From assembly GCA_964501135.1 (NCBI GenBank), contig CAZCRI010000003.1:18654-82653 (forward strand): a stretch of 64,000 nucleotides of DNA, read 5' to 3'. This DNA comes from an uncultured Candidatus Saccharibacteria bacterium. GTDB taxonomy: Bacteria > Patescibacteriota > CPR2 > UBA1875 > CAIMLA01. The notes under the pieces were generated by a model. That model worked only from the letters and a program-made list of their open reading frames with translations. It was not told where the DNA came from and made no database searches. Position 1 is the stretch's first letter, and each line of letters begins with the position of its first letter. Shown here one piece after another: positions 97-21,366 of this stretch. A program made the translations under genes and the position numbers.

Positions 97-236
97 TGAA
101 TACTTTTTGTGACGATAGACAAAAAGTATTACGGAAGTGCCTTGCTTTAGCAAGGAAGGGAAAGCTGTTCTCGATTAACTCAAATAATATTGAGAGAGAT
201 TCCAGCCTTCGCTGGAATGACGGGAGGGTGATAAGT
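97..236 (+). promoter_or_regulatory. Composite upstream element (hairpin H1 100-129, hairpin H2 140-155, hairpin+AATGACGGGAGGG motif 202-228) ahead of topA
   Basis: Perfect 11-bp stem atactttttgt/acaaaaagtat; ccttgc-ttta-gcaagg stem; ccagc-cttc-gctgg followed by aatgacgggaggg. Same module order recurs at 15627-15718 and 21260-21366. Confidence 0.4.
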
Positions 237-312
237 ATTGAATAAAACTTTTATACAAAGTTTTTAAACATTTGACACCACCCACTTTACCCGGTACCAT
301 TAGTCCTTAGTT

Positions 313-2472
313 ATGAAACTTGTAATTGTAGAGTCTCCCGCAAAGGGAAAGACAATAGAGAAATATCTCGGACCGGGCCACAAAGTGATGGCCTCTTTTG
401 GCCATGTCCGTGATTTACCGAAAAGCAACAAGGACGCCGTAGATGTAGAACACGGCTTCAAACCAAAGTACATTATGACTCCCAGGGGCAGCAAAACCGT
501 CCGGGAACTCCGAGCCGCCGCCGCAGGAGCCGACAAAGTATTACTCGCTACCGACCCGGATCGTGAAGGGGAAGCGATTTCTTGGCATCTTGCCGAAGTG
601 CTAAAGCTTAAAGATAAAGATTACGACCGCATCGAATTTCACGAGATTACCAAGGGAGCCGTAGAGAAGGCGGCTGCCAATCCTCGCAAGATAAACATGG
701 ACCTCGTGGACGCACAGCAGGCAAGACGTATTCTAGACCGCTTGGTCGGGTATGATCTTTCTGGTGTAATCTGGAAGAAAGTCCGCTACGGTCTCTCTGC
801 CGGACGGGTACAATCCCCAGCTCTACGCATCATTATGGAACGAGAACGTGAGATTCGAGCCTTCATCTCCGAGGATTTTTGGACCCTAACTGCAGAAACC
901 AAAACTTCCAAAAATGCGCCTCTCTCCCTGACTTGTACAGAGGAACCGAGAAGCAAAGAGCGTCTGGACGAGATAGAAAAGGTAGCAAAGGCCGGTGACT
1001 GGAAGGTATCTAAGGTCAGTAGTAGCGAAGCCAAGCGTGCCCCCAAGGCACCATTTACCACCTCTACCTTGCAACAAACTGCTAGTACTAGACTGGGGTT
1101 TTCGCCATCTCGTACCATGTCTGTAGCTCAGAAACTTTACGAAGCGGGTCTAATTAGCTATATGCGTACCGATAGTACCAATCTCTCCGAGACCGCCATA
1201 GGCCAGATAAAGGAAGTGGTTACCAATAAATACGGCAAGGAATTCCTCTCTCCTCATGTTTATAAAACCAATAGCAAGAATGCTCAGGAAGCCCATGAAG
1301 CGATTCGTCCAACCAACTTTGAACACGAACACGCCGGCCACAACGAGGAGCAAAAGAAACTTTACCAGTTGATCTGGGCACGTACTGTCGCTAGCCAGAT
1401 GGCAGACGCCAAAATGCTCCGCAGCAAGATTACTGCCACATATACTACAGATAAACAGATGCCGACCTTCACTGCCAATGGTAGTCTGATGCAATTTCCA
1501 GGTTGGCTTCTTGCCGATCCTGCAGCAAAGGGAGAGGAAGTAATGCTGCCCGAGGTTACAGAAGGGGAACCACTAACACTCATTGACTTTATTACATTAG
1601 CTAAGCAGACCGAGCCACCATCCCGCTACACCGAGGCTGGCCTGATCAAGGAGCTTGAGAAACGCGGTATCGGTCGTCCTAGTACCTATGCCAGCATTAT
1701 GAAAACTCTTGAGGATCGCGGATATGTAACCAAAGAAGGGCGAACGCTCTTCCCAACAGATACTGGAGATGTCGTCAGCTCATTCCTCGAGAAATACTTT
1801 GCCGAATACATCAGCGACACCTTTACCGCCGAAATGGAGGACGAACTCGACCTTATCTCCAACGGCCAGGCAAAATACGCGCAAATTCTTTCTGATTTCT
1901 ATGGCTTCTTCCGCGAGAAGGTAAAAGAAGAAACTAAGCGTCCGGCAGAACCAGTACCAGCAGATCTACAGTACAAGTGTCCAACTTGCGGAAGCGATAT
2001 GATCATAAAGCTCGGAAAAAATGGTAAGTTTATGAGCTGTTCTCGATTTCCAGAGTGCGAGGGAGCCCTCACTATGGAAGGGCGCGAGATGGAAGGACCC
2101 AAAGAAATAGGGGAATCCTGCCCCGAGTGCGGTGGTGCCCTGATAGAGCGTGAGGGAAAGTATGGAAAGTTTATCTCCTGCAGCAATTATCCAAAATGTA
2201 AATATATCCGCAAAGACGAAAACGAAGAAAAGGCTGGCGGTACAGGCGTCGCCTGTCCAAAATGTAAAAAGGGCGAGATGACAGAAAAACGAGGACGTTT
2301 CGGTGTTTTCTACTCGTGCAATAATTATCCAAAATGTAAGTATGCCATCAAAGCCAAACCTACAGGTAATACCTGTAAAATCTGTGGCTCACTGATGATG
2401 GAAGGAACCAAAACGATCCCAGAGCGCTGCTCGGACAAGGAATGTCCGGGTCACAATCCACATAAGGCTTAA
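313..2472 (+). CDS. topA: DNA topoisomerase I with C-terminal Cys4 zinc-ribbon repeats
   Basis: N-terminal TOPRIM start MKLVIVESPAKGKTIEKYLG; multiple CxxC...CxxC zinc ribbons at the C-terminus; 719 aa. Confidence 0.95.
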   Translation: MKLVIVESPAKGKTIEKYLGPGHKVMASFGHVRDLPKSNKDAVDVEHGFKPKYIMTPRGSKTVRELRAAAAGADKVLLATDPDREGEAISWHLAEVLKLKDKDYDRIEFHEITKGAVEKAAANPRKINMDLVDAQQARRILDRLVGYDLSGVIWKKVRYGLSAGRVQSPALRIIMEREREIRAFISEDFWTLTAETKTSKNAPLSLTCTEEPRSKERLDEIEKVAKAGDWKVSKVSSSEAKRAPKAPFTTSTLQQTASTRLGFSPSRTMSVAQKLYEAGLISYMRTDSTNLSETAIGQIKEVVTNKYGKEFLSPHVYKTNSKNAQEAHEAIRPTNFEHEHAGHNEEQKKLYQLIWARTVASQMADAKMLRSKITATYTTDKQMPTFTANGSLMQFPGWLLADPAAKGEEVMLPEVTEGEPLTLIDFITLAKQTEPPSRYTEAGLIKELEKRGIGRPSTYASIMKTLEDRGYVTKEGRTLFPTDTGDVVSSFLEKYFAEYISDTFTAEMEDELDLISNGQAKYAQILSDFYGFFREKVKEETKRPAEPVPADLQYKCPTCGSDMIIKLGKNGKFMSCSRFPECEGALTMEGREMEGPKEIGESCPECGGALIEREGKYGKFISCSNYPKCKYIRKDENEEKAGGTGVACPKCKKGEMTEKRGRFGVFYSCNNYPKCKYAIKAKPTGNTCKICGSLMMEGTKTIPERCSDKECPGHNPHKA

Positions 2473-2473
2473 C

Positions 2474-2854
2474 ATGAGTAAACCCAAGGAAATATCGTAC
2501 GGATTCAAGATACCCGAAGCCAGCCTCTGGGCACTTGATGTCCCCACCGAAGCAGTTAGCATCGATGAGATTTCATACAATCTAGATATTCCATATTTGG
2601 AACACGAAGGTACCGACGACTGGAATATGAGCATTACCTCGCTGTTAGCAAATTTTAATAACGAACCACATCATGCCGCTCAAGTAGAAAGAGCCAATCT
2701 CGACTACCCGATAGAGTTATACCTATTTGATGGCCGTTGGATTATACTAGATGGAGTCCACAGGCTTACAAAAGCGATTCGCCTAGGAAGAACACAAATC
2801 AAAGCACGACGAATCCCGCAATTAGAAATCGACCGCTTACTCTCTACTTTATAG
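2474..2854 (+). CDS. Hypothetical protein, possible ParB/Srx-like fold (ILDGVHRL...A..LG motif)
   Basis: ATG overlaps topA stop region (translational coupling); C-terminal DGxHR-type motif reminiscent of ParB-like nuclease/sulfiredoxin superfamily; weak. Confidence 0.4.
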   Translation: MSKPKEISYGFKIPEASLWALDVPTEAVSIDEISYNLDIPYLEHEGTDDWNMSITSLLANFNNEPHHAAQVERANLDYPIELYLFDGRWIILDGVHRLTKAIRLGRTQIKARRIPQLEIDRLLSTL

Positions 2855-2885
2855 CAATAAATTTTGAGATTATTAGGAGGACACC

Positions 2886-2984
2886 ATGGCAAAAGGACAG
2901 AATTCACAGAAGAATGTGAAGAAACCCAAGAAAGCAAAGAAGCCAAAGGGCGTACAGGTAACATCGAGTATTACCCCTAGCTAG
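2886..2984 (+). CDS. Small lysine-rich peptide (32 aa) MAKGQNSQKNVKKPKKAKKPKGVQV...
   Basis: Strong RBS aggagg 6 nt upstream of ATG; below ORF-track length cutoff; highly basic. Confidence 0.25.
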   Translation: MAKGQNSQKNVKKPKKAKKPKGVQVTSSITPS

Positions 2985-2985
2985 C

Positions 2986-3204: not shown

Positions 3205-3221
3205 TTAGACGTAAACCACGA

Positions 3222-3268
3222 AAAAACCCACTGCCGGGTAGGTCCTTTCGGATCCACTCAGAAGTGGG
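3222..3268. terminator. Bidirectional stem-loop/terminator between small ORF and sigma factor gene
   Basis: cccactgccgggtaggtcctttcggatccactcagaagtggg; on minus strand followed by tttttt run. Confidence 0.5.
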
Positions 3269-3980: not shown

Positions 3981-4014
3981 AACATTCTAACATTCTATAG
4001 AATGTTAGAATGTT
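3981..4014. promoter_or_regulatory. Perfect palindrome copy 1: aacattctaacattcta|tagaatgttagaatgtt = (ACATTCTA)x2 then (TAGAATGT)x2; abuts -35 (ttgaca 4016-4021) of ArsR-like gene
   Basis: Exact reverse-complement symmetry read directly; identical 32-bp core at 4327-4358 and 8224-8255. Confidence 0.85.
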
Positions 4015-4052
4015 GTTGACAAGAGTCAGTGTACAAGACGTAAGATAAACCC

Positions 4053-4325
4053 ATGGGGAAATCTCCGAAACAACTAGAACGTTATTGTAAAGGGATAGCA
4101 AATCACCACCGCATCAGCATCCTTAATCTTATTCACGACGAACCGGGAATATGCGTGGAAGACATATCAAAGAAACTGGAGACAAGTTACAAGACTGTGG
4201 CCATTCACACTCAAAAACTAGTCCAAGCAGGGCTAGTAAACAAACGCTATATGGGAAAGGAGATGACGCAGGTACTATCTCCCTACGGCGAAACTTTCTA
4301 CAAATTTCTACAATCAATAAAGTAA
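4053..4325 (+). CDS. ArsR/SmtB-family winged-helix transcriptional regulator (90 aa)
   Basis: HHRISILNLIHDEPGICVEDISKKLETSYKTVAIHTQKLVQAGLV is a typical ArsR HTH; flanked on both sides by the 32-bp palindrome. Confidence 0.75.
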   Translation: MGKSPKQLERYCKGIANHHRISILNLIHDEPGICVEDISKKLETSYKTVAIHTQKLVQAGLVNKRYMGKEMTQVLSPYGETFYKFLQSIK

Positions 4326-4326: not shown

Positions 4327-4358
4327 ACATTCTAACATTCTATAGAATGTTAGAATGT
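4327..4358. promoter_or_regulatory. Perfect 32-bp palindrome copy 2 (between ArsR-like gene stop and rarA start)
   Basis: acattctaacattctatagaatgttagaatgt exact. Confidence 0.85.
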
Positions 4359-4369
4359 ATATGAGAGAC

Positions 4370-5715: not shown

Positions 5716-7533
5716 ATGTCAGAGATAGCCGAAATCGAGCGACCCCACGGACTAGAAGACAGCACAGAAAACCATCTAGAAGATAGCGAAATTACAGAAA
5801 CTCTTAAGCCTAGAAGCTACGTAGACTCCGATGGTACAGAGAGACAAATCTACACACTAAAGAGCAAAGACGGCAAACCCGTAGAGGTAGTATTCTACTC
5901 TCCAGAGGAGATTCCATTCAACGGTGACGTAGTTTCAGATAAGCACGTCATGATACTGGGCGAACAGCCTAAATGGCGCTCCAAGAAAGAGTGGGATACT
6001 TTTGGGCACAACATCGCAACTGAATCTCTAGGGGGAGTCAATAGCCCCTCTATGAGCCATCAAACAGAGCGGGTTCTTGAAGGTAACGGCTTAATTTTTG
6101 CCGAGTCAAACCCTACGGCGATTCTAGACTTGGCAATGATACTGACAGGGGATTCAAGCAAAGAAGATCAAAATGATCGACGAAACGCCCATCTCAAGAT
6201 AATCACCCCTAGAGCACAAGAGATGATGGACAAAATCATCGCGTGTAAGCTATATGACTCGAACGGCAAAAGAAGAAATGCTAGCAGTTATGAAGGTGAG
6301 GTACTAACCTTGCTCGCCCTGGCTGGTAATAACGAGGCTCAGGAGATACTTGACCGCAGTTACGAGCTGATGCAAAAACAGGATGCCGAAACCGAAGCAG
6401 AATTACAAGATCAAATCGCAGAAATGGGGGAGCGCAACAAAGACTCTGAAGATATGAAGATAGAAGATCTAGTTGCTGTTCATGCCACCCGATATTTACC
6501 AAAAACAATCAGTGGTACCCCGACCATTCGTACCACCTTTGATGCTACGGGCTGGGAAGTTCCACGCGACACCGTTCATTTCTCCCTGAACCATCACGTC
6601 GCTGGTCATATGTATGGTAGCTGGGATGGAGCTCCCTACGTCGTGATATCTTCCCTGGGGGATATGATGGAGACCAATGGCAAACCAGCCTCTCTTAACA
6701 CCGTAGATACTTACTTTGAGGCCACTCCTGGTACAGGGGTGAAACTCCCTGAAAGCACCTGGATAGCTAAGCCAGGAATACTGGCAGAAGGTGAAATCGT
6801 TGCGTTCGATGACGAGAAACAAGAGCTTGTATACAAAAACGAACGAATAAATGCAGCCGATATTGCCAAGCTTTACGAATCTCTCGGCTACGACGAAAAA
6901 CAATGGTTCGAATGGACCGTCCTCGACAGGCTTACTGCCGACCTTAGCCAATATGAAGAATGGTGGCGTATCCATGTCACACAAGAACAAAGCGACCGTG
7001 TTTATGAATATCGAAAAGCTGAGGGTTCGGGTCAAGAAACGACTTTGGCATTCGTTGAATTGGGTGTCGATGAAGCAGTGCGAAAAATCTGTGAAGAGAA
7101 GTTTGGGGTAGTACTCTCGGACAAAGACTTCGCTACTTTATGCAACACCATGCGTTCGTACTTTGCTAGTAAGATAAAAACTTTTGCCATCAACAGTCAG
7201 ATTACCAGAATGGGCTACAAACCAGAGCACGGCGGGATGTGGGCCTGGGGAGACTCCTGGGACGTTACTGGCTCTACCGCAAAGTTAGGTGGTGAGATTG
7301 GAGTTCCCGTAATGGCACACTCCGGCACTATCAATTCCGATATGGAAAGCTATGTACCAAGTGAATTCAGACGAATGAATGCTGAGCCTAGGGCAGACGA
7401 TGATGGTTATGCCCCCGTGAAACCCAAAGACCCTAGAGAAGTGAAAGAAGATGTAAAAACTACTGTTAGGGAAAAGGCTGATAAAATATCACCGCAACTC
7501 CGCCGCGCCCTCTACCTGATGGGGGCGCTCTAG
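5716..7533 (+). CDS. Large hypothetical protein (605 aa), acidic N-terminus, no recognisable domain
   Basis: RBS ggaga before ATG; long uninterrupted ORF at native GC; no motif recognised. Confidence 0.6.
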   Translation: MSEIAEIERPHGLEDSTENHLEDSEITETLKPRSYVDSDGTERQIYTLKSKDGKPVEVVFYSPEEIPFNGDVVSDKHVMILGEQPKWRSKKEWDTFGHNIATESLGGVNSPSMSHQTERVLEGNGLIFAESNPTAILDLAMILTGDSSKEDQNDRRNAHLKIITPRAQEMMDKIIACKLYDSNGKRRNASSYEGEVLTLLALAGNNEAQEILDRSYELMQKQDAETEAELQDQIAEMGERNKDSEDMKIEDLVAVHATRYLPKTISGTPTIRTTFDATGWEVPRDTVHFSLNHHVAGHMYGSWDGAPYVVISSLGDMMETNGKPASLNTVDTYFEATPGTGVKLPESTWIAKPGILAEGEIVAFDDEKQELVYKNERINAADIAKLYESLGYDEKQWFEWTVLDRLTADLSQYEEWWRIHVTQEQSDRVYEYRKAEGSGQETTLAFVELGVDEAVRKICEEKFGVVLSDKDFATLCNTMRSYFASKIKTFAINSQITRMGYKPEHGGMWAWGDSWDVTGSTAKLGGEIGVPVMAHSGTINSDMESYVPSEFRRMNAEPRADDDGYAPVKPKDPREVKEDVKTTVREKADKISPQLRRALYLMGAL

Positions 7534-8223: not shown

Positions 8224-8255
8224 ACATTCTAACATTCTATAGAATGTTAGAATGT
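8224..8255. promoter_or_regulatory. Perfect 32-bp palindrome copy 3 upstream of high-GC membrane protein gene
   Basis: acattctaacattctatagaatgttagaatgt exact. Confidence 0.85.
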
Positions 8256-8413
8256 TGTGCTGAGTAATAATTAAGCTAAGGACGGTAAACCCCTTTACAA
8301 AGGCGGAAAAGGGGAATATAATCTGGCCGTCGAGATTCTTCGACGCACTTTGACTGGTGCTTATATTCGAAACGTGGCCTGGCGGCCACCAAGACCTAAG
8401 GAGGCTGGGCCTA

Positions 8414-9088: not shown

Positions 9089-9144
9089 ACCTTGTTTTAA
9101 GCACTACTCAAGAGTAGAATGTGGTTATACCAAGGAGAAATTCT

Positions 9145-11250
9145 ATGTCAAACCTTAACCTTAGTGATAACGAAAAACGAGATATTCAAAAATATCTTAC
9201 AGAAAATAAACTGCTCCCAGATAAATACAGGTTTCTTCTTTTTGATTCGACTCGTGAAGTAGAACTTATATGGAATGGCATGTCAGATGATATTGAGAGT
9301 TCAGTATTGCCATTTCAGACAATTGAGCATATTGATGAGCCACGAGATGAAGAGAAGATAAACTCTCAACAAGTGTTATTTGACACCTCGGGAAAACAAA
9401 TCGAAGGATGGTCAAATAAGCTTATCTGGGGCGATAACAAATTTATAATATCCTCACTTAAGAATGGCCCTCTTAGAAAACAGATTGAAGCAGAAGGCGG
9501 ACTAAAGTTAATCTATATAGACCCACCATTTGATGTCGGAGCTGACTTTTCTATGGAGGTAGAAGTTGGAGAGAATAACAGTAAGAATATCTTTACAAAA
9601 AAGCCATCGGTAATTGAAGAGGTCGCATACCGGGACACATGGGGAAAAGGCGCTGACAGCTTCATCTCAATGATATATGAACGACTGAAATTAATGAATG
9701 ATTTATTATCTGAAGACGGAAGTATTTACATACATTGTGACTCACGCGTAAATAGTTATATTCGTCTAATCCTTGACGAAGTGTTTGGAAGAGAAAACTT
9801 TGTAAATGAAATTGCCTGGTGCTACACGAGTGGCGGTGCTGGTAAAACAGCTTTTTCAAAAAAACATGATACGATATACCTCTATTCGAAGGCCAATAAG
9901 CACATTTTTAACATTCAATACTATAAGCGTTATGCCCTAATTCAAGAAGGGGAAGAAGTAGGTTTTGATCCTAGGATACAGTACTATAAAGATGAAAAGG
10001 GGAGAAGTTATCGTTTAAATCTTACTCTTGACTGGTGGAGCGACATTGGAATTGTTTCACCAAATAGCAACACAGAAAGGACGGACTATCCAACACAAAA
10101 GCCAGAGGGCTTACTTCAGAGAATAATTGAGACTTCATCAAATAAGGGCGATTTAGTAGCCGACTTTTTCTGTGGTTCAGGTACAACATTGGCAGTAGCA
10201 GAAAAACTGGGTCGTAAATGGATTGGTTCTGATCTTGGACGGTTTTCAATTCACACCACTCGTAAACGAATGATTGGCGTGCAACGAGAACTAAAAAATG
10301 CCGGGACAGACTTTAGACCATTTGAGATACTTAATATCGGTAAATACGAGAGGGAAAAGTACCTCGGTATTAACGATAGTTTGCGCGATGAAGAAAAACG
10401 AATGCAAAGAGAAAATAAGGAACGCGAATTTATCAAACTCATTCTTTCAGCCTATAAAGCCGAGGCTGTAAATTCCTTTAATAATTTCGTTGGGAAGAAG
10501 CGAGATAGGCTGGTAGCCGTGGGGTCAATTGATACGCCAGTAACAAATGACTTTCTGGAGAATATAATTATTGAGTGCAAAGAAAAGCATATTACAAAAG
10601 TAGACATTCTCGGATTTGACTATGAAATGGGCCTGGACTTTGAAACAACAAAGAAGCTAGGTATTGATGTTCAGTTTAAGGTCATACCTCGAGAAGTATT
10701 TGATAAAAGAGCAATAGAAAGAGGGCAAGTAAAGTTCTATGATGTTGCTTACATTGAAGTTAAACCCATTATCAAGGGCAGAGGAAATGAAAAAGAGGTA
10801 GCAATTGAACTAACCGACTTTAGCGTTTTTTACAATCAGGATAATACCGGAGAGGTTGAGGAAAAATTACAGGCCGGCGGCAGTAAAATTGTTATTGAAA
10901 ATGGACAGGTTATTAAAATTTTCAAGGATAAACAAAGCGGTATAGTAGAACGTGAAACTCTCACGAAGAAATGGACAGACTGGATTGATTATTGGTCTGT
11001 TGACTTTGAATTTGAAAGCAAGAAAGAACTTATCAACATCGCAGATCCCGCAACTGGTAGGGAGGAAAAGAAGTGGACTGGTAATTACATTTTTGAAAAT
11101 GAATGGCAATCCTTTAGAACTAAAAAAAACAGAAACTTAGAGTTAACATCTGCATATAAAATTACGTCGAAGGGTAAAATGAAAATTGCTATCAAGGTAA
11201 TTGATATTTTCGGTAACGATACCACCAAGGTAATTGAGGTGAATGTATGA
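9145..11250 (+). CDS. mod: Type III restriction-modification methyltransferase (Mod), beta-class N6A/N4C MTase
   Basis: Motif IV DPPF (IYIDPPFDV) precedes motif I FCGSGTT (ADFFCGSGTTLAVAEKLGRKWIGSD) with TRD between, the Type III Mod order; RBS aaggaga before ATG 9145; low GC (~37%). Confidence 0.8.
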   Translation: MSNLNLSDNEKRDIQKYLTENKLLPDKYRFLLFDSTREVELIWNGMSDDIESSVLPFQTIEHIDEPRDEEKINSQQVLFDTSGKQIEGWSNKLIWGDNKFIISSLKNGPLRKQIEAEGGLKLIYIDPPFDVGADFSMEVEVGENNSKNIFTKKPSVIEEVAYRDTWGKGADSFISMIYERLKLMNDLLSEDGSIYIHCDSRVNSYIRLILDEVFGRENFVNEIAWCYTSGGAGKTAFSKKHDTIYLYSKANKHIFNIQYYKRYALIQEGEEVGFDPRIQYYKDEKGRSYRLNLTLDWWSDIGIVSPNSNTERTDYPTQKPEGLLQRIIETSSNKGDLVADFFCGSGTTLAVAEKLGRKWIGSDLGRFSIHTTRKRMIGVQRELKNAGTDFRPFEILNIGKYEREKYLGINDSLRDEEKRMQRENKEREFIKLILSAYKAEAVNSFNNFVGKKRDRLVAVGSIDTPVTNDFLENIIIECKEKHITKVDILGFDYEMGLDFETTKKLGIDVQFKVIPREVFDKRAIERGQVKFYDVAYIEVKPIIKGRGNEKEVAIELTDFSVFYNQDNTGEVEEKLQAGGSKIVIENGQVIKIFKDKQSGIVERETLTKKWTDWIDYWSVDFEFESKKELINIADPATGREEKKWTGNYIFENEWQSFRTKKNRNLELTSAYKITSKGKMKIAIKVIDIFGNDTTKVIEVNV

Positions 11251-11804
11251 GCCAGCAATTCATTCCTTTTAGCCATGAGGACATAGAACTAAAAAATGCC
11301 TTGGTCGGTAAAGCAAGGGAATTAAGGAGCTCTGAAGATCTTGGTGCACAACTTTCATCGGCACTAATTTACGCAAGTATTACTGAGTATTTAGCCGAGA
11401 ACTTGTTAGCCAACTTAAGATACCTTGTTTATCGCTCCTCCTATGTTGACTTTGCCGGAATAATATTTATTGATGAGAGAAAGAAGACAAATAAGGCACA
11501 AAAGCAAACACTCGGAGACTCCAAGAACAACCTTGGAAAATACAGTTTCCCAGATAAGCCAGATATTATGGCGGTATTAGAGGAGATAAATAAATCAAGG
11601 AATAATCTATTCCACAATCTCGCCAAAGTTAAAGAGTCGGAATTGCATAAGATAGATACAGACATCAAATGTATACAGAATAATACAGAAGAATTTATTG
11701 AAAAAGTAAATGTACTTTATGCTGGTTTGCAGAAATTGGTAATACCAGAGGCGCCCCAAGTGCCGACTGATACTAAGGAGGGAAAAGAAAATGGCACTGC
11801 ATAA
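11247..11804 (+). CDS. Hypothetical 185-aa protein inserted between mod and res (overlaps both)
   Basis: ATGA overlap with mod stop and 14-nt overlap with res start; no motif recognised. Confidence 0.6.
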   Translation: MSQQFIPFSHEDIELKNALVGKARELRSSEDLGAQLSSALIYASITEYLAENLLANLRYLVYRSSYVDFAGIIFIDERKKTNKAQKQTLGDSKNNLGKYSFPDKPDIMAVLEEINKSRNNLFHNLAKVKESELHKIDTDIKCIQNNTEEFIEKVNVLYAGLQKLVIPEAPQVPTDTKEGKENGTA

Positions 11805-14472
11805 AGATTTTCCTAAGGACAAATTTCAAATACTCGACCCAGCGATTAGATGGTTTCCGGCTGAGGAGGATTTACGTAAGGATGGCTACGAAAAACTCCT
11901 GCCGCCTTTCGTACCTGAGTTAAGGGAAAGAGTAGCGGAGTGGCGTAAGGATCACTATGAGGGTGCTAGTAAGACCTCAAAGGCACTTCTAAGCTGGTGG
12001 TTTAAGGAGCCCCATACTATTTATGGCAAAGATGGTACAAGTATAGCTTTTCAATACTATTTTGCACAAAGAGAAGCCGTAGAAACAATCATCTGGTTAT
12101 ATGAAACGGAAAAAGTAGAGGGTAAATACGATTTAATAAAGTTTGACAAACTGGGACGGGTCAGTCCTAATATGTTTAGTGAAGAGTGGCTACGCTTTGT
12201 TATTAAGATGGCAACAGGTAGTGGCAAGACAAAAGTTATGAGTTTGCTTCTCGCCTGGTCTTACTTTCACAAGCTTTATGAAGAAGGGTCCCAGCTTTCC
12301 AAGAACTTCTTGCTCATAACGCCAAATATCATTGTTCTAGACAGGATTAAAAATGACTTTGTAGGTCTCAAGATATTCTACGAAGACCCAATTCTCCCAG
12401 ACAATGGCTACCATGGTCAAAACTGGCAAGATGATTTTCAGTTAAAGCTTCATCTACAGGATGAGGTTGGTGCTATTTCTAAATCTGGAAACATCTTTCT
12501 AACAAACATACACAGAGTGTATGAAGGAAGCATCAACGAGGCTAGTGCTGATGATGTTGATGTATCAAATTATTTTATGGGCAGTAAGGTGACAGGCAAA
12601 ACTAATGACTCAAAGGTAGATTTGGGTGAAATAGTAAGAGATATTGATGAGCTTATGATAATCAATGATGAAGCGCATCATATCCATGATCCGAATATGG
12701 CTTGGTCAAAGTCAATTGAAGATATTCATAACAAACTTCTACAAAAAGGTGGCAAACTTGCCTTGCAAATTGATGTTACCGCGACGCCAAAAAACAATCG
12801 TGGAGAGATTTTTGTTCAGACCGTAACTGACTACCCACTGGTTGAGGCCATCCACCAGGGTGTTGTCAAAAATCCAGTTTTGCCAGATCTTGCTAGCCAG
12901 GCAAAGTTACAAGAAAAACAAAGCTCAATTTTTTCTGAAAAGTATGAAGACTACATCCGACTTGGTGTAGAAGAGTGGGCCAAAACCTATAAAGAACTTG
13001 AACCGACAGGCAAGAAATCGATCTTGTTCATAATGACTGACGATACCAAGAACTGTGATGACGTAGCTGAGTTTTTAGAGAGGAGCTACGCACAACTCAA
13101 AGGGGCTGTTTTAACAATTCACACTAACCAAAGTGGTGAAATATCAGAGACAGTCTCAGGGAAGAAAGAAAAAGAATTACAAGAACTTCGTAAAAAGGCA
13201 AATGAGATAGATAGTCTTGAGAGTCCGTATAGGGTTATCGTTTCGGTACTTATGCTAAAAGAAGGTTGGGATGTAAAGAACGTAACAACTATCGTGGGGT
13301 TGCGACCATATGGTTCAGACTCAAAAATTCTCCCCGAACAAACTCTCGGTCGCGGTCTTCGTAGAATGTATTTTGGACAAGATGTTGAGGAATACGTGAG
13401 CGTCATCGGTACACCTGCATTTATGGAGTTTGTAGAGTCAATCAAGGCTGAAGGTGTTGAGTTAGAAAAGAGAAGAATGGATCGTTCAGGCACTCCGATT
13501 ACACCGACTGTTATTGAGGTTGATACCGCAAATGTCAAAAAGGATATTGATAATCTAGATATTGAGCTGCCAGTTCTTACTCCGAGAATACAGAGAGAAT
13601 ACAAAAATCTGAATCTTTTGAGTGTTGATAAATTCAAACACAAAAGAATCAAAATAAAACAGTTCTCAGAGGAAGAGAAAAAAGAGATTGTTTTCAAGGA
13701 AATAATTGAAGACAAGTTACATCATACAACAGTCCTGAATAGTTCTATTGAACCTAACTATCAAAGTGTAGTTGGATTCTTTGTTCAACGAATTATGAAA
13801 GAACTAAGGTTGTTCGGTTGCTACGATATACTTTTTGGTAAAGTAAAGGTGTTTATAACTCACGACTTATTTGAAAAGGAAGTTGATCTAAACGACTCCA
13901 ATATTCTGAGAAACCTGTCTGAATTAGAGGCAGTCAAAACAATAGTTGAGACATTCAAAAAGGAAATAAATGACCTGACAGTACAGGATGTTGGTGATAC
14001 TGAAATAAAGAATTATCTCAAAGTAAGTAGCGCGAGACCTTTCGTTGTTACTGATGCTAAATATCTTCTACCGAAGAAAAGCGTATTCAATAAGATAGTT
14101 GGAGATAGTGATTTTGAGCTGGAATTTGCAGATTTTCTTGAGAGAGCTGATGATGTTATTTCATTTGCGAAGAACTACCTAGAAATTCACTTCAAGATTG
14201 ACTATAAAAATGCAAGCGGAGCAATTTCCAGCTATTACCCAGATTTCTTTGTCAAAACAGATAATAAGACGGTCTATATTGTAGAAACTAAGGGACGAGA
14301 AGATCTAGACGATATAGAGAAAATTAAGAGATTGGCACAATGGTGTGAAGACGCAACTGAAAGACAAAAGAAGATAGAATACAAGATGCTTTACGTGAAG
14401 CAAGACGAATGGGAGAGATATAGACCAAGTAAATTCACCGAGTTGATTACTAGTATTGGAATGAAGCCATGA
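11791..14472 (+). CDS. res: Type III restriction enzyme Res subunit (SF2 helicase + C-terminal PD-(D/E)xK nuclease)
   Basis: Walker A MATGSGKTKVM, DEAH box IINDEAHHIHD, helicase motif VI-like region, C-terminal YYPDFFV...VYIVETKGRED nuclease motif. Confidence 0.8.
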   Translation: MALHKDFPKDKFQILDPAIRWFPAEEDLRKDGYEKLLPPFVPELRERVAEWRKDHYEGASKTSKALLSWWFKEPHTIYGKDGTSIAFQYYFAQREAVETIIWLYETEKVEGKYDLIKFDKLGRVSPNMFSEEWLRFVIKMATGSGKTKVMSLLLAWSYFHKLYEEGSQLSKNFLLITPNIIVLDRIKNDFVGLKIFYEDPILPDNGYHGQNWQDDFQLKLHLQDEVGAISKSGNIFLTNIHRVYEGSINEASADDVDVSNYFMGSKVTGKTNDSKVDLGEIVRDIDELMIINDEAHHIHDPNMAWSKSIEDIHNKLLQKGGKLALQIDVTATPKNNRGEIFVQTVTDYPLVEAIHQGVVKNPVLPDLASQAKLQEKQSSIFSEKYEDYIRLGVEEWAKTYKELEPTGKKSILFIMTDDTKNCDDVAEFLERSYAQLKGAVLTIHTNQSGEISETVSGKKEKELQELRKKANEIDSLESPYRVIVSVLMLKEGWDVKNVTTIVGLRPYGSDSKILPEQTLGRGLRRMYFGQDVEEYVSVIGTPAFMEFVESIKAEGVELEKRRMDRSGTPITPTVIEVDTANVKKDIDNLDIELPVLTPRIQREYKNLNLLSVDKFKHKRIKIKQFSEEEKKEIVFKEIIEDKLHHTTVLNSSIEPNYQSVVGFFVQRIMKELRLFGCYDILFGKVKVFITHDLFEKEVDLNDSNILRNLSELEAVKTIVETFKKEINDLTVQDVGDTEIKNYLKVSSARPFVVTDAKYLLPKKSVFNKIVGDSDFELEFADFLERADDVISFAKNYLEIHFKIDYKNASGAISSYYPDFFVKTDNKTVYIVETKGREDLDDIEKIKRLAQWCEDATERQKKIEYKMLYVKQDEWERYRPSKFTELITSIGMKP

Positions 14473-15317: not shown

Positions 15318-15339
15318 GCACTAATTATTTTTACATTTA

Positions 15340-15508
15340 CCACTTTTGGCAGCAAAAGTGGTGCAAAACTGCCGACTCCTTGCAAAATCGCAAGTGTTGC
15401 TTCTAACTCACTCGTTCTTAAATGACAAAACTCGTAATGCTCAAACATTGTCTTTTAAGATGCTCGCTCGGGTCGTCGCGCGCTGTATTTTGCAGGTCGC
15501 GGAAAGAA
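15340..15508 (+). repeat. ~170-bp repeat R1 (conserved ends, variable middle); inverted partner at 21073-21254
   Basis: ccacttttggcagcaaaagtgg hairpin, tgcaaaactgccgactccttgcaaaatcgc and ctcgggtcgtcgc.cgctgtattttgcaggtcgcggaaagaa shared with reverse complement of 21073-21254. Confidence 0.8.
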
Positions 15509-15626
15509 GAGTGACCTTAAACTCTCATGGATTTGTCTAATTCAGTACACTAACTCTGATTTAAGTTGATGCTGAATAGCCACTGCGAAGGTCCGCAGAC
15601 CGCCGCATTTATAATGTCTTTTTGGA

Positions 15627-15718
15627 TACTTTTGTGACTACGGACAAAAGTATCGGCTAAGCCTTGCTTTAGCAAGGCAAAGAAGAATAGTTTGCTTTAC
15701 CATGGTCGCAATGCAGCA
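15627..15718 (+). promoter_or_regulatory. H1-H2-M composite element copy B (H1 15627-15654, H2 15662-15679, degenerate M ~15701-15718)
   Basis: atacttttgt-gactacgg-acaaaagtat (stem shortened on both arms relative to copy at 100-129, i.e. compensatory); gccttgctttagcaaggc. Confidence 0.45.
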
Positions 15719-15751: not shown

Positions 15752-15780
15752 TTGACGTACCACGCCTTTTGTGCTATAAT
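15752..15780 (+). promoter_or_regulatory. Promoter TTGACG-N17-TATAAT for gene 15791
   Basis: ttgacg 15752-15757, spacer 17, tataat 15775-15780. Confidence 0.5.
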
Positions 15781-15790: not shown

Positions 15791-16873
15791 ATGAAAACAG
15801 CAAACCCACAAAAAACAAATATGAAGGGCCAAAAACTCGACGTAAATGCAGAAGTTGAGTTTATTTTTGCTGCTCCAAAGCTAAAAAAAGAGCGCGACCA
15901 AGCTGTCATTACTGATCGCTTTGGGCTTACTGGAGCCAAACCAAAGACCCTAGAGGAAATTGGTAAGGCCCTGGGGATTACCCGTGAGCGCGTGCGACAG
16001 ATCGAGAAAAATACCCTCAAGAAGCTCTCTGACTTTGTTGCTACCGACCTGAGAGGTCAGGAGATTTCTTCGGTTATTCTGGGCGCTATCAAGAGCGAAG
16101 GCGGCGTAGTCCGTGCCACAACCCTAGATAACGACATCCTCGGTGAGAACGCCAGTGCCAAGGCCAAGCACCAGCTTAGCTTTATCGTGGCCTGCTCTAC
16201 CGACATTTCACTATACACAGAGAGCAATCACGCTCATCGCAGCTACTTCATGGCGCCTCTTGCCTCACCAGTAATTGATAAGGTGCTAAAAGAAGCCGTT
16301 TCTATCCTAAAGAGTGAAGATAAGCCAGTAGAAGAGAAGGCACTAGTTGCGAAGATTCGCAAAGCTGTCTCGGATCTAGAGCCCAAGACTATTGTCGCTA
16401 TCATCGCTATCAGTAAGGTAATATTGCGTACTGAGTCGGGTCACCTCGGTCTCTCTCATTGGCGCGACATCAACCCAAAGAGCATCAAGGACAAGACCTA
16501 TTACATTCTAAAGAAACACAACAAGCCACTGCACTATACCGACATCGCTGATCACATTCAGAACTTTGGCGGTAAAGAGAAACATGTCACCAAGCAAGCG
16601 GTACACAACGAGTTGATTCGTGACGAACGTTTTGTCCTGATTGGCCGTGGTATCTACGCACTCTCTGAGTGGGGATACGCCTCTGGTGTTGTTGAGGAAG
16701 TAATCGAAACCGTCCTGATCGAGGCCGGACGCCCAATGCACAAAGACGACATTATCGATGAAGTTCTAAAGCGTCGCATGGTAAAAGAAACAACTATTTT
16801 ACTAAATCTACAAAAAAAGCGCTTCAAAAGGGTAGCGAGAGCAACGTATACTGTATCTAACGGGAGGGAATAA
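15791..16873 (+). CDS. Sigma-70 region-4 (HTH) domain protein with ~280-aa C-terminal extension
   Basis: [27 protein letters not shown] matches the sigma-70 region 4.2 signature; the remainder is unrecognised. Confidence 0.6.
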
Positions 16874-19800
16874 GTGCTGATTCAAGATATTAGCCTGGCG
16901 ATACTCGGCGGAATGTGGTCCGTCGTGGTTTGGACATGGTGGATAGTAGTGCCGATACTTGGCTACTTCACCTGGAAGAACTACAAAAAAGCAGAGTATG
17001 TTGAGGCGATTGAAACAGTCGTTCTCTCGATTAAAATCCCTAAGAATAACGAAAAAGGTCCGATAGCTGCCGAGATGATGCTAGCGGCGCTTCATGGTAT
17101 CTTGCATCCAAAAAGCCAGCAAAAGAAGGGGACTAGTGTACAAGAGCACCTGAGTTTCGAGATTGTCTCGACCCTCAATGCGATTGAATTCTTTGTTTGG
17201 GTACCGACACACCTAAAGGACTTCGTAGAAGGCCAGGTATACGCCCAGTATCCAACCGCCGAGATTACTACTGTTAGTGACTATTCACTCGATATCGATA
17301 TTGACGATGATAAAGTAGACGACGCCGTCGTCGGCACCGAGCTGGTACTGACGAAGGACGAGATTTATCCGATCAAGACCTTTCTGAACTTTGACGTCGA
17401 CCCACTGGCCGGCATTACAGGTATGCTTTCGAAAATTGAGCAAAAGAGTGAACAGGTCTGGATTCAGATTCTCGCCAAGCCTGTCGATGACGAATGGCGT
17501 GATGGCTCACTAGGGCACATTGCGAGCAAAAAGGGTGGGGCTGGCAGTGCTGATACCTGGGTGCATAAGCTAATCGATATTTTGATTATGCCCCTGCAGG
17601 TAATACCATACATGATCAATGCGATCATTTCGCCAATGACACCAGAACAGAAGAAGAAGCAGGAAGAAAAAGAGAAGAAGGAGAAGGAGAAGAAGGAGAA
17701 GGAAGCTCCGAAGCTCTCTCATTCTGAAGAAACTGAACTCTCTGCGATCGAAGAGAAGGCCAATAAGCTTGGGTACAAAGTAATTATCCGTATCTGTTAC
17801 CTCGCCAAAAGCCCTGAGAAAGCCAAGGAGCGCATCCAGGCCGTGATTGGTGCCTTCAAACAATTCAATACTACTAACCTCAATGGTTTTCAGGGGAGCG
17901 GCCTCTACACCGGACAAGACTTCTTGGACGCTTACCGTGCTCGTCTTTTCAATAATCACGGCTACACTCTAAATATCGAGGAACTCGCGAGCCTCTACCA
18001 CTTACCACACGTTTCAGTAGAAACCCCGAATATCCTCTGGACCTCATCTAAAAAGGGCGAGCCACCAAGCAGCTTGCACATTATTGACTCCGAAGACACT
18101 GTCGATAAAGAGCTCACACCGATGGGAACCACTACCTTCCGTAACGGACAGCGTACCTTTGGTATCACTAGAGACGACCGCCGTAGACATATGTACATCA
18201 TCGGTAAGAGTGGTGTCGGTAAATCACGTATGATGGCAAATCTTGCTATCAACGACATCATTAATGGTGAGGGTGTCGCCGTAGTCGACCCACATGGTGA
18301 GCTTATCGAGCTGATCATGAAATACATTCCAAAGGAACGTATCGACGACGTGATTTATCTGAACCCAGCTGACAAAGATTTTCCGATTGGTTTTAATCCC
18401 CTGGAATCTCCAGAGGGAATGCGTGAAGAGACCGCCAAGGGCTTTATCTCGGTACTCAAACGTATGTTTGGGTATTCGTGGGGTCCTCGTTTGGAATACG
18501 TCCTAAACCACACTGTACTGGCTCTCTCTGAGGTAGAAGGCTCAACGATGCTCGGCATCGTCCGTCTCCTGACCGACAAGGGCTATCGCAAGCGCATCGT
18601 CGAGCAAGTTACCGACCCGGTAGTGCAGATGTTCTGGCTCAAGGAATTCTCGACCTATAACGACAAGATGGCCACCGAAACTGTAGCTCCTATCCTAAAC
18701 AAGGTAGGACAATTTACGGCTTCGGCGATAATTCGTAACATCGTCGGCCAGCCGAAGAGTAGTATCGACTTTTCGGAAATAATGAATACCGGAAAGATAC
18801 TTCTCGTGGACCTCTCTACCGGTAAGATAGGGGAGGTAAACTCCGAACTGCTGGGCTCCCTGATCATTACCAAGCTGCAGCTTGCTGCGATGCAACGTGC
18901 CTACATCCCCGAGGAAGAGCGCAAAGACTTCTACCTCTACGTCGACGAATTCCAGAACTTTGCTACTGACTCCTTTGCGACGATTCTCTCAGAAGCCCGT
19001 AAGTATCGCTTGTCCCTCTGCGTGGCCAATCAGTACATTGCTCAGATGGAAGAAACTGTACGCGACGCTGTCTTTGGTAACGTCGGTACTCTCGTCTCTT
19101 TCCGCGTTGGCGCCACTGATGCCTCTTACCTCGAGAAAGAGTTTGAACCAGTATTTACCCAGAACGACCTGATCAACCTCGATAACCGACACATGTATCT
19201 AAATATGCTGATCAACGGCGTTACGAGTATACCTTTCTCAGCGATGTCCCTAAATACACCAGAGATGAAAGAAGATTGCTCGGCGATTGTAAAGGCCGTC
19301 TCGCGCGAGAAATACGGCAAGAAGCGTGAACTGGTCGAGGATGAGGTAAAACACTGGTACAACGTGGACTCAGTAGTTGCTGGTATCAACGCCAACGAGA
19401 AGGACGACCCAATTGTGACCAAACCAAAGCCTACCATTGTTCGTGAAAAATCTGAGCAGGGGAGTACCCCTAGCCAGCCACTACGAGAAAAGAAAGAAAC
19501 TAATATTAATCCCCCTGCCAGCAAGACCACCGAGAGTCCAAAGAAGAGTGACCTTCAGCTCGCCATAATTGCAAATACTAAAAAATCTGGGAAAGCAGCC
19601 GACAAACCTATGACCGAGAAACAAAAAGTAATCGCCGAGCTCGAGAAGAGTGCGGACTACATCGTGCGCCACAAGGACAAGGACGACAAGTACGTCTTTT
19701 TGCCAAACCACAAACCAGAAGGAGTGATTCCTGACAAGCGTGGCCGCCAAAAGGGCAACAACTACAAGAAGAATGGCCAAAAGATCTACGAAGTAAAGAT

Positions 19801-20449
19801 TAGTATGTACGAACCCAAAGAACATGATCTCTTTGGCGATGGTCGTGCTCCTGATGTCTGGGTAGGTACGGCTGCAGAAATGATCGACCAGTTACAGGCT
19901 ATCGGTGCTGGCCTAGGTGGTGGCAGCAAATTCCTCGGCGTCGAGGACCACACAGATACTCCCGCTATCCTAGAAGCGCTCCTTGCAAAGCAGAAAACCG
20001 CATCTACAGAGAAGGCTCGTGAGACGATTGCGGATAAAATCGGGGTAGATACACTATCTAGCCTCAAGAAGGCCGTCAGCGTGCCCGAAAAACCCGTAGA
20101 AGCGGTCAAGGAACCTACTCCAGAGGCAGTAAAAGAAGAAACCAAAACCCCTGAGGTCGAGGTGGCTCCTGAAAAGCCAGCTGCACCCGAGAAAACTGAA
20201 ATAAAAGAAACAACAAAACCCAAAGAACCCGTAGCTGCCGAACCAGTAGGGAAGAGCCTCGAAGAGATCAAGGACGTCCTGCTCTCTGTCTCCCATCCTA
20301 AAGAGCACCCTATTTACCGTGAAAAGGTCGAGAAGCAGATCACCCCAGAGGACTTTCATAACCTTAAAACAATTGAGCCACACGAACGAATCAGGGTGGT
20401 GACCAAAGAACTGAAGCCAGGGGAGACAGTTCACCTAACAAAACCATAA
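16874..20449 (+). CDS. Membrane-anchored VirD4/TraD-like (type IV coupling protein family) P-loop ATPase with long K/E/P-rich C-terminal tail
   Basis: N-terminal TM helices; Walker A IIGKSGVGKSRMMAN and DPHGE (HerA/DUF87-like); FYLYVDEFQNFAT (TraG-D_C type Walker B); low-complexity KEKKEKEKKEKE and PEKP repeats. Confidence 0.65.
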   Translation: MLIQDISLAILGGMWSVVVWTWWIVVPILGYFTWKNYKKAEYVEAIETVVLSIKIPKNNEKGPIAAEMMLAALHGILHPKSQQKKGTSVQEHLSFEIVSTLNAIEFFVWVPTHLKDFVEGQVYAQYPTAEITTVSDYSLDIDIDDDKVDDAVVGTELVLTKDEIYPIKTFLNFDVDPLAGITGMLSKIEQKSEQVWIQILAKPVDDEWRDGSLGHIASKKGGAGSADTWVHKLIDILIMPLQVIPYMINAIISPMTPEQKKKQEEKEKKEKEKKEKEAPKLSHSEETELSAIEEKANKLGYKVIIRICYLAKSPEKAKERIQAVIGAFKQFNTTNLNGFQGSGLYTGQDFLDAYRARLFNNHGYTLNIEELASLYHLPHVSVETPNILWTSSKKGEPPSSLHIIDSEDTVDKELTPMGTTTFRNGQRTFGITRDDRRRHMYIIGKSGVGKSRMMANLAINDIINGEGVAVVDPHGELIELIMKYIPKERIDDVIYLNPADKDFPIGFNPLESPEGMREETAKGFISVLKRMFGYSWGPRLEYVLNHTVLALSEVEGSTMLGIVRLLTDKGYRKRIVEQVTDPVVQMFWLKEFSTYNDKMATETVAPILNKVGQFTASAIIRNIVGQPKSSIDFSEIMNTGKILLVDLSTGKIGEVNSELLGSLIITKLQLAAMQRAYIPEEERKDFYLYVDEFQNFATDSFATILSEARKYRLSLCVANQYIAQMEETVRDAVFGNVGTLVSFRVGATDASYLEKEFEPVFTQNDLINLDNRHMYLNMLINGVTSIPFSAMSLNTPEMKEDCSAIVKAVSREKYGKKRELVEDEVKHWYNVDSVVAGINANEKDDPIVTKPKPTIVREKSEQGSTPSQPLREKKETNINPPASKTTESPKKSDLQLAIIANTKKSGKAADKPMTEKQKVIAELEKSADYIVRHKDKDDKYVFLPNHKPEGVIPDKRGRQKGNNYKKNGQKIYEVKISMYEPKEHDLFGDGRAPDVWVGTAAEMIDQLQAIGAGLGGGSKFLGVEDHTDTPAILEALLAKQKTASTEKARETIADKIGVDTLSSLKKAVSVPEKPVEAVKEPTPEAVKEETKTPEVEVAPEKPAAPEKTEIKETTKPKEPVAAEPVGKSLEEIKDVLLSVSHPKEHPIYREKVEKQITPEDFHNLKTIEPHERIRVVTKELKPGETVHLTKP

Positions 20450-20470
20450 TTTGCAACTGATGCAATCTTT

Positions 20471-20499
20471 ACAGCCCATACCAAATGGGCTGTAATTTT
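20471..20499 (+). terminator. Rho-independent terminator after 1191-aa gene
   Basis: acagcccat-accaa-atgggctgt then aattttg. Confidence 0.6.
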
Positions 20500-21072
20500 G
20501 GCTAAAACAGGCCCGAGCCGGGAGGCCTAATATTTAGGAATATTTAGATATATATCAAAACAAGGGGGTCTACGCTGAGGGAGCGGAAGGTCCCGGAGAA
20601 AAGATATATTATGAGTATTTACTTAGTTTCTTTGCTGCTTACTGGCCTGTCATCTCGGCGATTGATATTGTGTCGCACAATATATCTTGGACGACATTGC
20701 GCATTCTGAGATTCCCGGGTGTAGTTGGTCATCCAAAAGGAGTTTTAAACGTACATTTTCCCTATATATAGGCACAAACCGCGGGTCTAGCTTCCCAAAT
20801 TTGGGCCGCTTGGTCTGGTCAATATGATTTGTAGAACCTGTAAAAGACAGCCAAATAATCTGGCTGGAATCTGACGATCATTTGCAATTAATACTTAGTT
20901 TCCGCTCGCCTACCAAGAGTTTGAAACGAGACTGAATAAGATAATAATTAATTAACATTTAATATAATATTAGTTAATTCTTTTGCTCACTTGCCCACTC
21001 CCCCAGGTCTCCCCCAATAATCGGAAAATAGATTGCCGCGTCACTACGCTCCTCGCAATGACGTAGGGGTGT

Positions 21073-21254
21073 TTCTTTCCGCGACCTGCAAAATACAGCG
21101 AGCGACGACCCGAGTGACTATCATAAAAAATAATGTTTGACCCCGACGCTACCGTCGGGAGAGTTTTGCTTTTTATGAAGGAACGAAGTAGGAGTGACAC
21201 TAGCGATTTTGCAAGGAGTCGGCAGTTTTGCACCACTTTTGCTGTCAAAAGTGG
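21073..21254 (-). repeat. Repeat R2, inverted copy of R1
   Basis: Ends near-identical to R1 in reverse complement; middle ~80 bp diverged. Confidence 0.8.
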
Positions 21255-21259
21255 TAAGG

Positions 21260-21366
21260 ATTTGTGACTACGGACAAAATTACTAACGTGTTGAGAAAGA
21301 GATCCTGAAACAAGTTCAGGATGGCGTGTAGGTGAGATTGCCGCGCTTCGCTCGCAATGACGAGGG
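21260..21366 (+). promoter_or_regulatory. H1-H2-M composite element copy C (H1 21260-21280, H2 21302-21322, M 21343-21366)
   Basis: atttgt-gactacgg-acaaaat; atcctgaa-acaag-ttcaggat; gcgcttcgctcgcaatgacgaggg. Confidence 0.4.

Follow-up and report, generated by a model that had tools for sequence, protein, structure and literature searches.

Recurrent hairpins occupy several intergenic regions of a 64,000-nt stretch of DNA from an uncultured Candidatus Saccharibacteria bacterium (assembly GCA_964501135.1, contig CAZCRI010000003.1, positions 18,654-82,653; hereafter the window). A preliminary description had joined them into one module, in which a long hairpin (H1), a short hairpin (H2) and a small hairpin with a conserved flank (M) followed each other in the same order at three loci, and had read it as consistent with a cis-regulatory RNA or a multi-site protein-binding region upstream of two genes. 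Our analysis suggests instead, with a probability of roughly 55%, that these regions carry a mosaic of hairpin repeats from at least three independent dispersed families, and not a single RNA module or leader. The first family, here called the A-type unit, would be a non-coding, non-autonomous element with several copies per genome and either orientation relative to genes. The second, M, would be a Ssn-related motif of the type of the Neisseria Transformation Sequence (NTS) and dRS3, and the third would be a 185-nt type-B repeat that ends in an H1-like hairpin.

The H1 hairpins lie where they had been placed, with exact matches to the core TTGTGAC-N-A-N-R-GACAA at 107, 15632 and 21262 of the window, all on the plus strand. 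Their stems measure 12, 11 and 5 bp rather than the 11, 10 and 6 bp first given, and the matched changes on both arms are real (5T/5A versus 4T/4A; AATAC/GTATT versus GATAC/GTATC). Folded as DNA, copies 1 and 2 reach -8.8 kcal/mol (z = -8.7) and -8.5 kcal/mol (z = -7.5), and copy 3 folds weakly (-1.8 kcal/mol, z = -1.2). H2, CCTTGCTTTAGCAAGG, is indeed identical in two copies (140 and 15662) and recurs with one mismatch at 59278, but its presumed third form, ATCCTGAA..TTCAGGAT at 21303-21323, is unrelated to it and resembles an M-type hairpin. M itself had been reported at all three loci; it is exact at locus 1, approximate at locus 3 and absent at locus 2. Locus 2 has H1 and H2 without M, and locus 3 combines a remnant H1 with inserted hairpins, among them the unrelated "H2" and the approximate M; only locus 1 therefore shows the complete order of three parts.

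We found that H1 and H2 sit inside a larger A-type unit of approximately 120 nt, composed of the nested helices P0 and P1, RGTC-T5-6, H1 and H2, so that about 60 nt on the 5' side of H1 are also conserved in true copies. The unit starts with ATGACU, followed by hairpin P1, which has an outer helix YRCG/CGYR, an inner helix of 3-4 bp (GGTC/GACC, GAGC/GCTC, GCC/GGC, AGTC/GACT or AAC/GTT) and a loop CNCA. An A-rich linker then ends in RGTC, which pairs with GACU as the closing helix P0. After RGTC come 5-6 T, H1 with an A/T-rich stem of 11-12 bp, and usually H2. The H1 loops, which read GACGATAG, GACGACGG and others, are 8 nt long and have the general form GAC-N4-G.

A covariance model of the unit (R1), run over the window without filters, found just two full copies, the remaining matches being weak. 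Copy 1 (38..165, plus strand; 94.7 bits, E = 4.5e-25) comprises P0 (48-51/88-91), P1 (58-61/77-80) with inner stem 65-67/72-74 and loop CTCA, GAGTC at 87-91, the T-run at 92-97, H1 at 99-110/119-130 with loop GACGATAG at 111-118, and H2 at 140-155. Copy 2 (15564..15687, plus strand; 106.7 bits, E = 1.5e-28), whose ortholog occupies 6150-6273 of locus L011 in a related genome, comprises P1 (15584-15587/15604-15607) with inner stem 15590-15593/15598-15601, GTC at 15616-15618, the T-run at 15619-15623, H1 at 15625-15635/15644-15654 with loop GACTACGG at 15636-15643, and H2 at 15661-15678. These scores, on the order of 1e-25 and 1e-28, are not independent evidence, because R1 was built partly from the same two copies. 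The preliminary description had proposed building such a model and looking for more copies, and many were found.

The structure of the unit is conserved. In an alignment of 16 A-type sequences (A2), 89.6% of cells were paired, compared with 35-49% when the partners were slid, and double-sided changes occurred in nine pairs, six of them among the eight pairs of P1; none of 500 shuffles reached these values. Both P1 and the base of H1 covary, which bears out the earlier proposal that structure is kept rather than sequence. The outer H1 stem varies freely in the same manner (GATAC/GTATC, GCCAC/GTGGC, GCTAC/GTAGC, TTTAC/GTAAA, GCATAC/GTATG), and RNAalifold independently recovered the outer P1 helix and H1. 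No Rfam 15 family was found at A-type units in the window or in 16 loci (best E = 0.22 in E-value mode up to E <= 10), and gathering-score matches were restricted to tRNAs in the window and to one tmRNA and one tRNA in the loci. The aligned copies share no conserved reading frame on either strand. A small leader peptide (ATG ACT ... TGA inside H1) was rejected, as its frame ends differ and 1-nt differences break the frame between copies; antisense ORFs (open reading frames) of about 120 aa across the rumen units under code 25 were likewise rejected, as their ends are not conserved and proper starts are lacking.

The flank of H1 is rigidly spaced: the T-run ends 12-13 nt ahead of the H1 loop in almost every copy. 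In addition, the numbers of T in the flank, T in the stem and A in the stem are coordinated: 34 distinct units have 5/4/4, six units spread over three separate groups have 6/5/5, and three have C+T5/5/5. This tracking fits an alternative helix, predicted from the sequence, between T(n+1)G and CA(n)G of the 3' arm. Three other ideas about this region were discarded. A pseudoknot GAGUC/GACUC is complementary in the rumen group only, with 3 bp elsewhere; a U.A-U triplex of the T-run on the stem would be precluded by its geometry; and the likeness of the loop ACTACG to the pMV158 nick site was treated as coincidence, since the loop varies.

The A-type unit recurs in about 60 distinct loci. A genome scan for the H1 core, covering one genome per species, gave 31 loci, and multiple copies occurred only in metagenome-assembled genomes (MAGs) that carry a Patescibacteria or Saccharibacteria label and in two whose label is just "bacterium". 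Copy numbers were at least 7 in ELA691, 4 in JTS-AC303, 2 in CAZEFH01 and 1 in ELA653, with three copies on one 363-kb contig; H1-core matches in other phyla were single and had no common flanks. A metagenome scan that left the middle four loop bases unfixed gave 59 loci, a substantial fraction of which come from genomes in which UGA is a sense codon. The rumen loci L033-L089 have a GC content of 0.27-0.36, and because their contigs are densely coding only with UGA as a codon (code 25), we take this group to be Patescibacteria lineages that use this code. Each rumen contig carries two to three near-identical units of about 230 nt, the typical length in this large group, compared with about 330 nt in ELA691-like genomes. 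Several locus groups share a core of RGTC-T5-6, 1-2 nt, an 11-12-bp stem, GAC-N4-G and the return arm, with different 5' and 3' extensions. A viral origin was dropped after a search of IMG/VR gave 0 matches, and literature searches yielded no described Patescibacteria repeat or small RNA matching the unit. Overall, the A-type unit appears to be an undescribed structured element that is widespread in Patescibacteria. As side observations, tandem repeats of ACATTCGTTAGGCATTCAGAG lie upstream of the copy near 6462 in L020 (ELA691), and the motif ACATTCGTAGGCATT closes every ELA691 unit.

The second family has a known counterpart. M consists of a hairpin followed by AATGACGGGAGGG and is the reverse complement of the Neisseria NTS, CGTCATTCCCGCGMAVGCGGGAATCYRG, and of the dRS3 "Ssn-related motif" (SRM); judged by its sequence, it is a member of the NTS/SRM repeat class. 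The NTS contains the dRS3 repeat ATTCCC-N8-GGGAAT and is bound and cut by SsnA, a 94-aa GIY-YIG nuclease, solely as single-stranded DNA and on one strand only (PMC11893778). The presence of SsnA lowers transformation by NTS-bearing DNA, the hairpin limits integration of transforming DNA, and SRM hairpins accompany ssn homologs in many bacteria (PMC11893778). In the window, GGAATGACGGGAGGG occurs exactly at 214-228 and 31228-31242, and the published SRM pattern (HGTCWY-N0-2-YYVSBRH-N0-5-WNVSBRG-N0-2-RNCYNB) has three matches, two of which are M copies, against 0.33 expected from 100 dinucleotide shuffles. The exact fits lie on the minus strand at 195-222 (CGTCATTCCAGCGAAGGCTGGAATCTCT) and 31209-31236 (CGTCATTCCCGCGAAAGCGGGAAACTAG).

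Eight M copies were identified in the window, all intergenic and always with the NTS strand on minus. M copy 1 (195..228) reads CCCTCCCGTCATTCCAGCGAAGGCTGGAATCTCT on this strand and forms a DNA hairpin of -7.7 kcal/mol. The copy at 31209..31242, between the minus-strand genes nusG and rplK, reads CCCCTCCCGTCATTCCCGCGAAAGCGGGAAACTAG and is a near-exact Neisseria NTS. M-type hairpins at 55017..55043 and 55139..55168 read GTCATTCCCTTGAAGAAGGGAAT and GTCATTCCTGGTCGTAAGCCAGGAA, respectively, on the minus strand, and another at 21030..21070, just upstream of the right type-B copy, reads AGATTGCCGCG..CGCAATGACGTAGGGG on the plus strand. A looser pattern of a hairpin plus a GTCAT flank fits the sites at 55017, 55140 and, with one arm mismatch, 21378-21445. 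The calls at 21030-21070, 21303-21327 and 21340-21366 were made by eye, and the M of copy 3, GCAATGACGAGGGC, is an approximate match to GGAATGACGGGAGGG.

The eight M and three H1 copies of the window keep one orientation, although the direction of the genes changes from rightward to leftward at 21.4 kb. In all 12 clean sites with GTCAT plus hairpin (5 in the window, 7 in related loci), the motif is on the other strand from the A-type unit. Of the 16 aligned A-type units, about 11 have an M-type hairpin within about 150 nt downstream in fixed relative orientation, so the association is real, though not obligatory. The H1-(H2)-M order is seen in a Saccharibacteria-like group (the window, L003, L011, L018, L040, L080) and in a group of the L007 type (L007, L046, L049, L084).

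The third family adjoins the remnant H1 of locus 3. The type-B repeat is 185 nt long, and its right copy (21073..21257, plus strand) contains an extra hairpin at 21142-21160 and a terminal hairpin at 21232-21255 (-9.6 kcal/mol). Its left copy (15337..15508, minus strand) is inverted relative to 21073-21257, is 80% identical, and ends in the H1-like hairpin CCACTTTTG-GCAG-CAAAAGTGG, which R1 matches weakly. The repeat ends in GCAGTTTTGCA-CCACTTTTG-CTGY-CAAAAGTGG, echoing the layout of a T-run plus H1. The third H1 (21260..21280, plus strand) is a 5-bp remnant with loop GACTACGG joined to the type-B repeat; P0/P1, the T-run and H2 are absent, and the remnant is kept in L011. As an observation aside, the extra hairpin of the right copy reads CCCCGACGCTACCGTCGGG, and a similar one lies at 55207-55224.

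Comparison with relatives shows that these repeats are gained and lost. L011 belongs to JTS-AC303, a close relative with 83-86% identity across aligned stretches. By blastn, L011 has 3 nt where the window has a 167-nt insertion (21286..21452, plus strand) made up of three M-type hairpins, at 21303-21327 (the third "H2" of the preliminary description), 21340-21366 and 21378-21445, and pieces of the insert match other M copies in L011. L011 lacks the left type-B copy at the corresponding syntenic position; a composite transposon bounded by inverted type-B copies was rejected on this ground. Copy 2 retains only a degenerate trace of M, and the M-type hairpin of its JTS-AC303 ortholog is intact. 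A decayed site lies downstream of fusA: the window has 95 nt there (59220..59314, plus strand), in which only an H2-like hairpin (59278-59293) remains, and at the same place in the relative (L018) a complete A-type unit and M occupy 262 nt. The preliminary description had allowed that the element might prove to be part of a degenerate miniature inverted-repeat transposable element (MITE) with a random distribution. What we observed comes close, in that the repeats are present or absent between relatives and M belongs to the NTS/SRM class, but neither terminal inverted repeats nor a target-site duplication were found at the A-type borders or at the 167-nt insertion. No conserved cleavage tetranucleotide was definable at the A-type borders.

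The geometry of H1 also invites a reading as duplex DNA, namely as a site for a dimeric protein, either an operator or an 11-8-11 recombinase core like loxP or dif. Inverted arms of 11 bp around an asymmetric 8-bp spacer are recombinase-like, copies 2 and 3 have the same spacer GACTACGG and bracket a two-gene module, and in one rumen copy (L076 142-173) the loop is inverted relative to its conserved flanks, which may reflect a palindrome-mediated inversion. However, the matched 4/4 versus 5/5 arms and the covariation of the outer stem within one genome fit a hairpin and not a half-site, no recombinase or regulator recurs nearby, and the absence of the left type-B copy in the relative also speaks against such a site. 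We regard this explanation as quite unlikely.

The position of the modules relative to promoters bears on the proposal of a leader. On the coding strand, two copies precede the start codons of topA and of gene 15791 by 130-210 nt, as a cis-regulatory RNA in the 5' leaders of these genes would require. However, sigma-70-like promoters are predicted in between. That of topA (272..300, plus strand) is TTGACA-17-TACCAT, with the ATG at 313 and TopA domains identified in the product; that of the sigma-r4/HARE-HTH gene (15752..15780, plus strand) is TTGACG-17-TATAAT with a TG extension, with the ATG at 15791. The modules therefore lie upstream of the -35 box. Across 64 distinct loci the orientation is mixed, with 15 same versus 11 opposite among co-directional gene pairs, 8 convergent sites and 3 divergent ones, and many units face away from the downstream gene; in addition, M is antisense between nusG and rplK. 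The preliminary description had suggested looking for an association with particular gene classes, and all-against-all clustering of 295 neighboring ORFs revealed none: no family recurred across locus groups, and no transposase, recombinase or nuclease was among them. This pattern does not fit a leader or a riboswitch, and we consider such a function very improbable.

The same positions can be read as those of a terminator or insulator, in which transcription arriving from upstream would end at P0/P1 and the U-run, with H1/H2 as back-up or roadblock hairpins ahead of the next promoter. A hairpin abuts T5-6 with at most 2 unpaired nt and a free energy of -8 kcal/mol or lower in 17 of 58 code-11 copies, the window copies lie just upstream of strong predicted promoters, and convergent sites exceed divergent ones. 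On the other side, co-directional gene pairs have the unit in both orientations (15 same, 11 opposite), the hairpin ahead of the T-run reaches only -1 to -5 kcal/mol in rumen lineages with UGA as a codon, a consensus terminator scan does not call these sites, and the conserved H1 loop stays unexplained. This reading is unlikely in our view; it, the duplex protein site and the leader are progressively less likely in that order.

A separate observation from the gene map is that genes converge at about 21.4 kb and that cumulative GC skew peaks at 16-20 kb, which may indicate a replication terminus or a coding-strand effect. The idea of a terminus with Ter sites was dropped, because the gene convergence and the skew change at 17-21 kb are inseparable from coding-strand effects.

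Another explanation places the A-type unit at the level of RNA, as a small RNA gene or a related element. Its transcript would fold into P0/P1, H1 and H2, and the conserved H1 loop would bind a protein or another RNA. Its nested covarying helices and the conservation of the unit across distant lineages would suit such a role, and its occurrence as intergenic units in either orientation resembles that of independent genes. The T(n+1)G/CA(n)G pairing points the same way, as it uses a T.G wobble tolerated on the plus strand only and tracks stem length in three groups. However, the Saccharibacteria-like group has no conserved -35/-10 elements upstream of ATGAC, the units in L070 and L023 have no predicted promoter-like site, and no U-tract follows H1, H2 or M. 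Moreover, units are gained and lost between close relatives, and their orientation is fixed with respect to M, a known DNA-level repeat. We regard an RNA gene or RNA switch as a serious rival to the mosaic, though a clearly less probable one.

For the mosaic of dispersed repeats, we propose that single-stranded DNA of one strand is the form in which the hairpins act or are propagated. M would be the target of a Ssn-type nuclease encoded elsewhere in the genome, and we have moderate confidence that, by analogy, its mechanism can be borrowed from the work on Ssn. H1, which has a conserved loop and a GTC-T-run flank at rigid spacing, may be the recognition structure of a lineage-conserved protein specific for single strands. 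Single-strand recognition is favored for the A-type unit because its orientation is fixed relative to M and independent of genes, and because the geometry from flank to hairpin is rigid. A more specific proposal, which we offer tentatively and think improbable, is that the A-type unit is a Patescibacteria-wide single-strand signal read by a conserved protein, a counterpart of NTS/Ssn that controls cutting or recombination of incoming or replicating single-stranded DNA in these episymbionts, which are obligate scavengers of DNA, or else a conserved RNA switch using the helix between the T-run and the A-tract.

Several observations weigh against the mosaic reading and its single-strand mechanism. 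The A-type data do not separate single-stranded DNA from RNA, and both the nesting of P0/P1 and the U-run after a hairpin are reminiscent of RNA. In the H1 stem, G.T and A.C mismatches are about equally frequent (5 versus 4) and do not discriminate between the two; an attempt to assign the H1 strand from wobble pairs was dropped for this reason. A 30-nt core common to Saccharibacteria-like and UGA-codon lineages is unusual for a selfish repeat, and since much of the stem, together with the loop ends, was specified in the patterns used to search for H1, the conservation seen there is partly ascertainment. As for M, an exact fit to the published pattern is seen in only two of the eight copies. 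A genome with such motifs would be expected to have an ssn gene, a small single-domain GIY-YIG gene (cd10448) with the motif usually at its sides. No GIY-YIG or ssn ORF was detected by a motif regular expression over the window and about 90 fetched loci, which cover a small fraction of the genomes, and a profile search of small ORFs was not made; the link between M and Ssn therefore rests on motif identity.

Other features of the window were noted alongside. The intergenic region at 54800-55260, next to rpsJ/tuf, combines an H1-like hairpin, two M/NTS-like hairpins and a bidirectional terminator. This H1-like hairpin (54971..54998, plus strand) is GATACCTTTCT-TTTAA-GAGAAAGGTATC, with a different loop, an R1 E-value of 0.0095 and a DNA fold of -9.6 kcal/mol. 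A perfect palindrome of 32-35 nt, ACATTCTAACATTCTATAGAATGTTAGAATGT, is present in three copies (3982-4016, 4327-4361 and 8224-8258); because two of them flank the gene at 4053-4325 for a 90-aa winged-helix (ArsR/MarR-like) protein, it is probably the operator of that regulator. The repeat GGCGGTATTATATGCCGAA..AATCAA at 37612-37647, 58141-58176 and 59150-59185 is conserved in L018 and may be a promoter-like element. Finally, a low-GC island (0.385-0.42) at 9121-14472 encodes a DNA methylase and a ResIII/endonuclease protein and looks like a type III restriction-modification system.

Genomes of Patescibacteria are small and contain few repeats. That a structured multi-copy element of about 120-330 nt is kept from Saccharibacteria-like to UGA-codon lineages therefore implies that it has a conserved partner and a function that merits identification. 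The NTS-type hairpins in a Saccharibacteria-like genome suggest that Ssn-style restriction of single-stranded DNA may be at work in bacteria believed to rely on the uptake of DNA. For annotation purposes, these regions should not be labelled as leaders, riboswitches or small ORFs.

Compared with known systems, many A-type copies resemble intrinsic terminators in that the P0/P1 hairpin is followed directly by T5-6. They differ in three ways: their orientation is independent of the upstream gene, the hairpin has little stability in UGA-codon lineages, and the most conserved part, H1, comes after the T-run. The unit also resembles palindrome-associated transposable elements (PATEs) derived from IS200/IS605 and other targets of HUH or Y1 single-strand enzymes: it is non-coding, lacks terminal inverted repeats and target-site duplications, and has a sub-terminal hairpin with a rigidly spaced single-stranded flank, GTC-T5 ending 12-13 nt before the loop. 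However, no tnpA, tnpB or REP-associated tyrosine transposase (RAYT) gene was found near any of about 64 A-type loci. Repetitive extragenic palindromic (REP) sequences differ from it further: they are imperfect palindromes of 20-40 nt that begin with a conserved GTAG at the 5' end, number in the hundreds and are associated with a RAYT gene that they flank. The 5' GTAG is not conserved in H1 loops, no transposase-like (RAYT) family recurs near the units, and the A-type unit is far longer and more structured; we therefore do not assign it to the REP/BIME class.

In Neisseria intergenic mosaic elements (NIMEs), RS units are flanked by dRS3, and bacterial interspersed mosaic elements (BIMEs) are mosaics of REP sequences in enterobacteria. 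As in both, several short palindromic units are combined here in recurrent order and orientation, in intergenic positions that vary between relatives, and as in NIMEs the type-B and A-type units are flanked by dRS3-like M hairpins. The numbers differ: the 64 kb contain 3 copies of H1 and 8 of M, whereas those systems have hundreds. The closest counterpart of M is the Neisseria NTS/SRM. M differs from it in its Saccharibacteria-like host, Patescibacteria being absent from the main text of the SRM report (PMC11893778), in the A/T-containing or long bulged stems of several copies, which fall outside the published pattern, and in a conserved 5' flank, CCCTCC. Nevertheless, the minus strand of M consists of CGTCAT, an ATTCC..GGAAT hairpin and a C, the same as CGTCATTCCCGCGMAVGCGGGAATCYRG, and like the NTS, M is oriented, intergenic, multi-copy and clustered around some genes.

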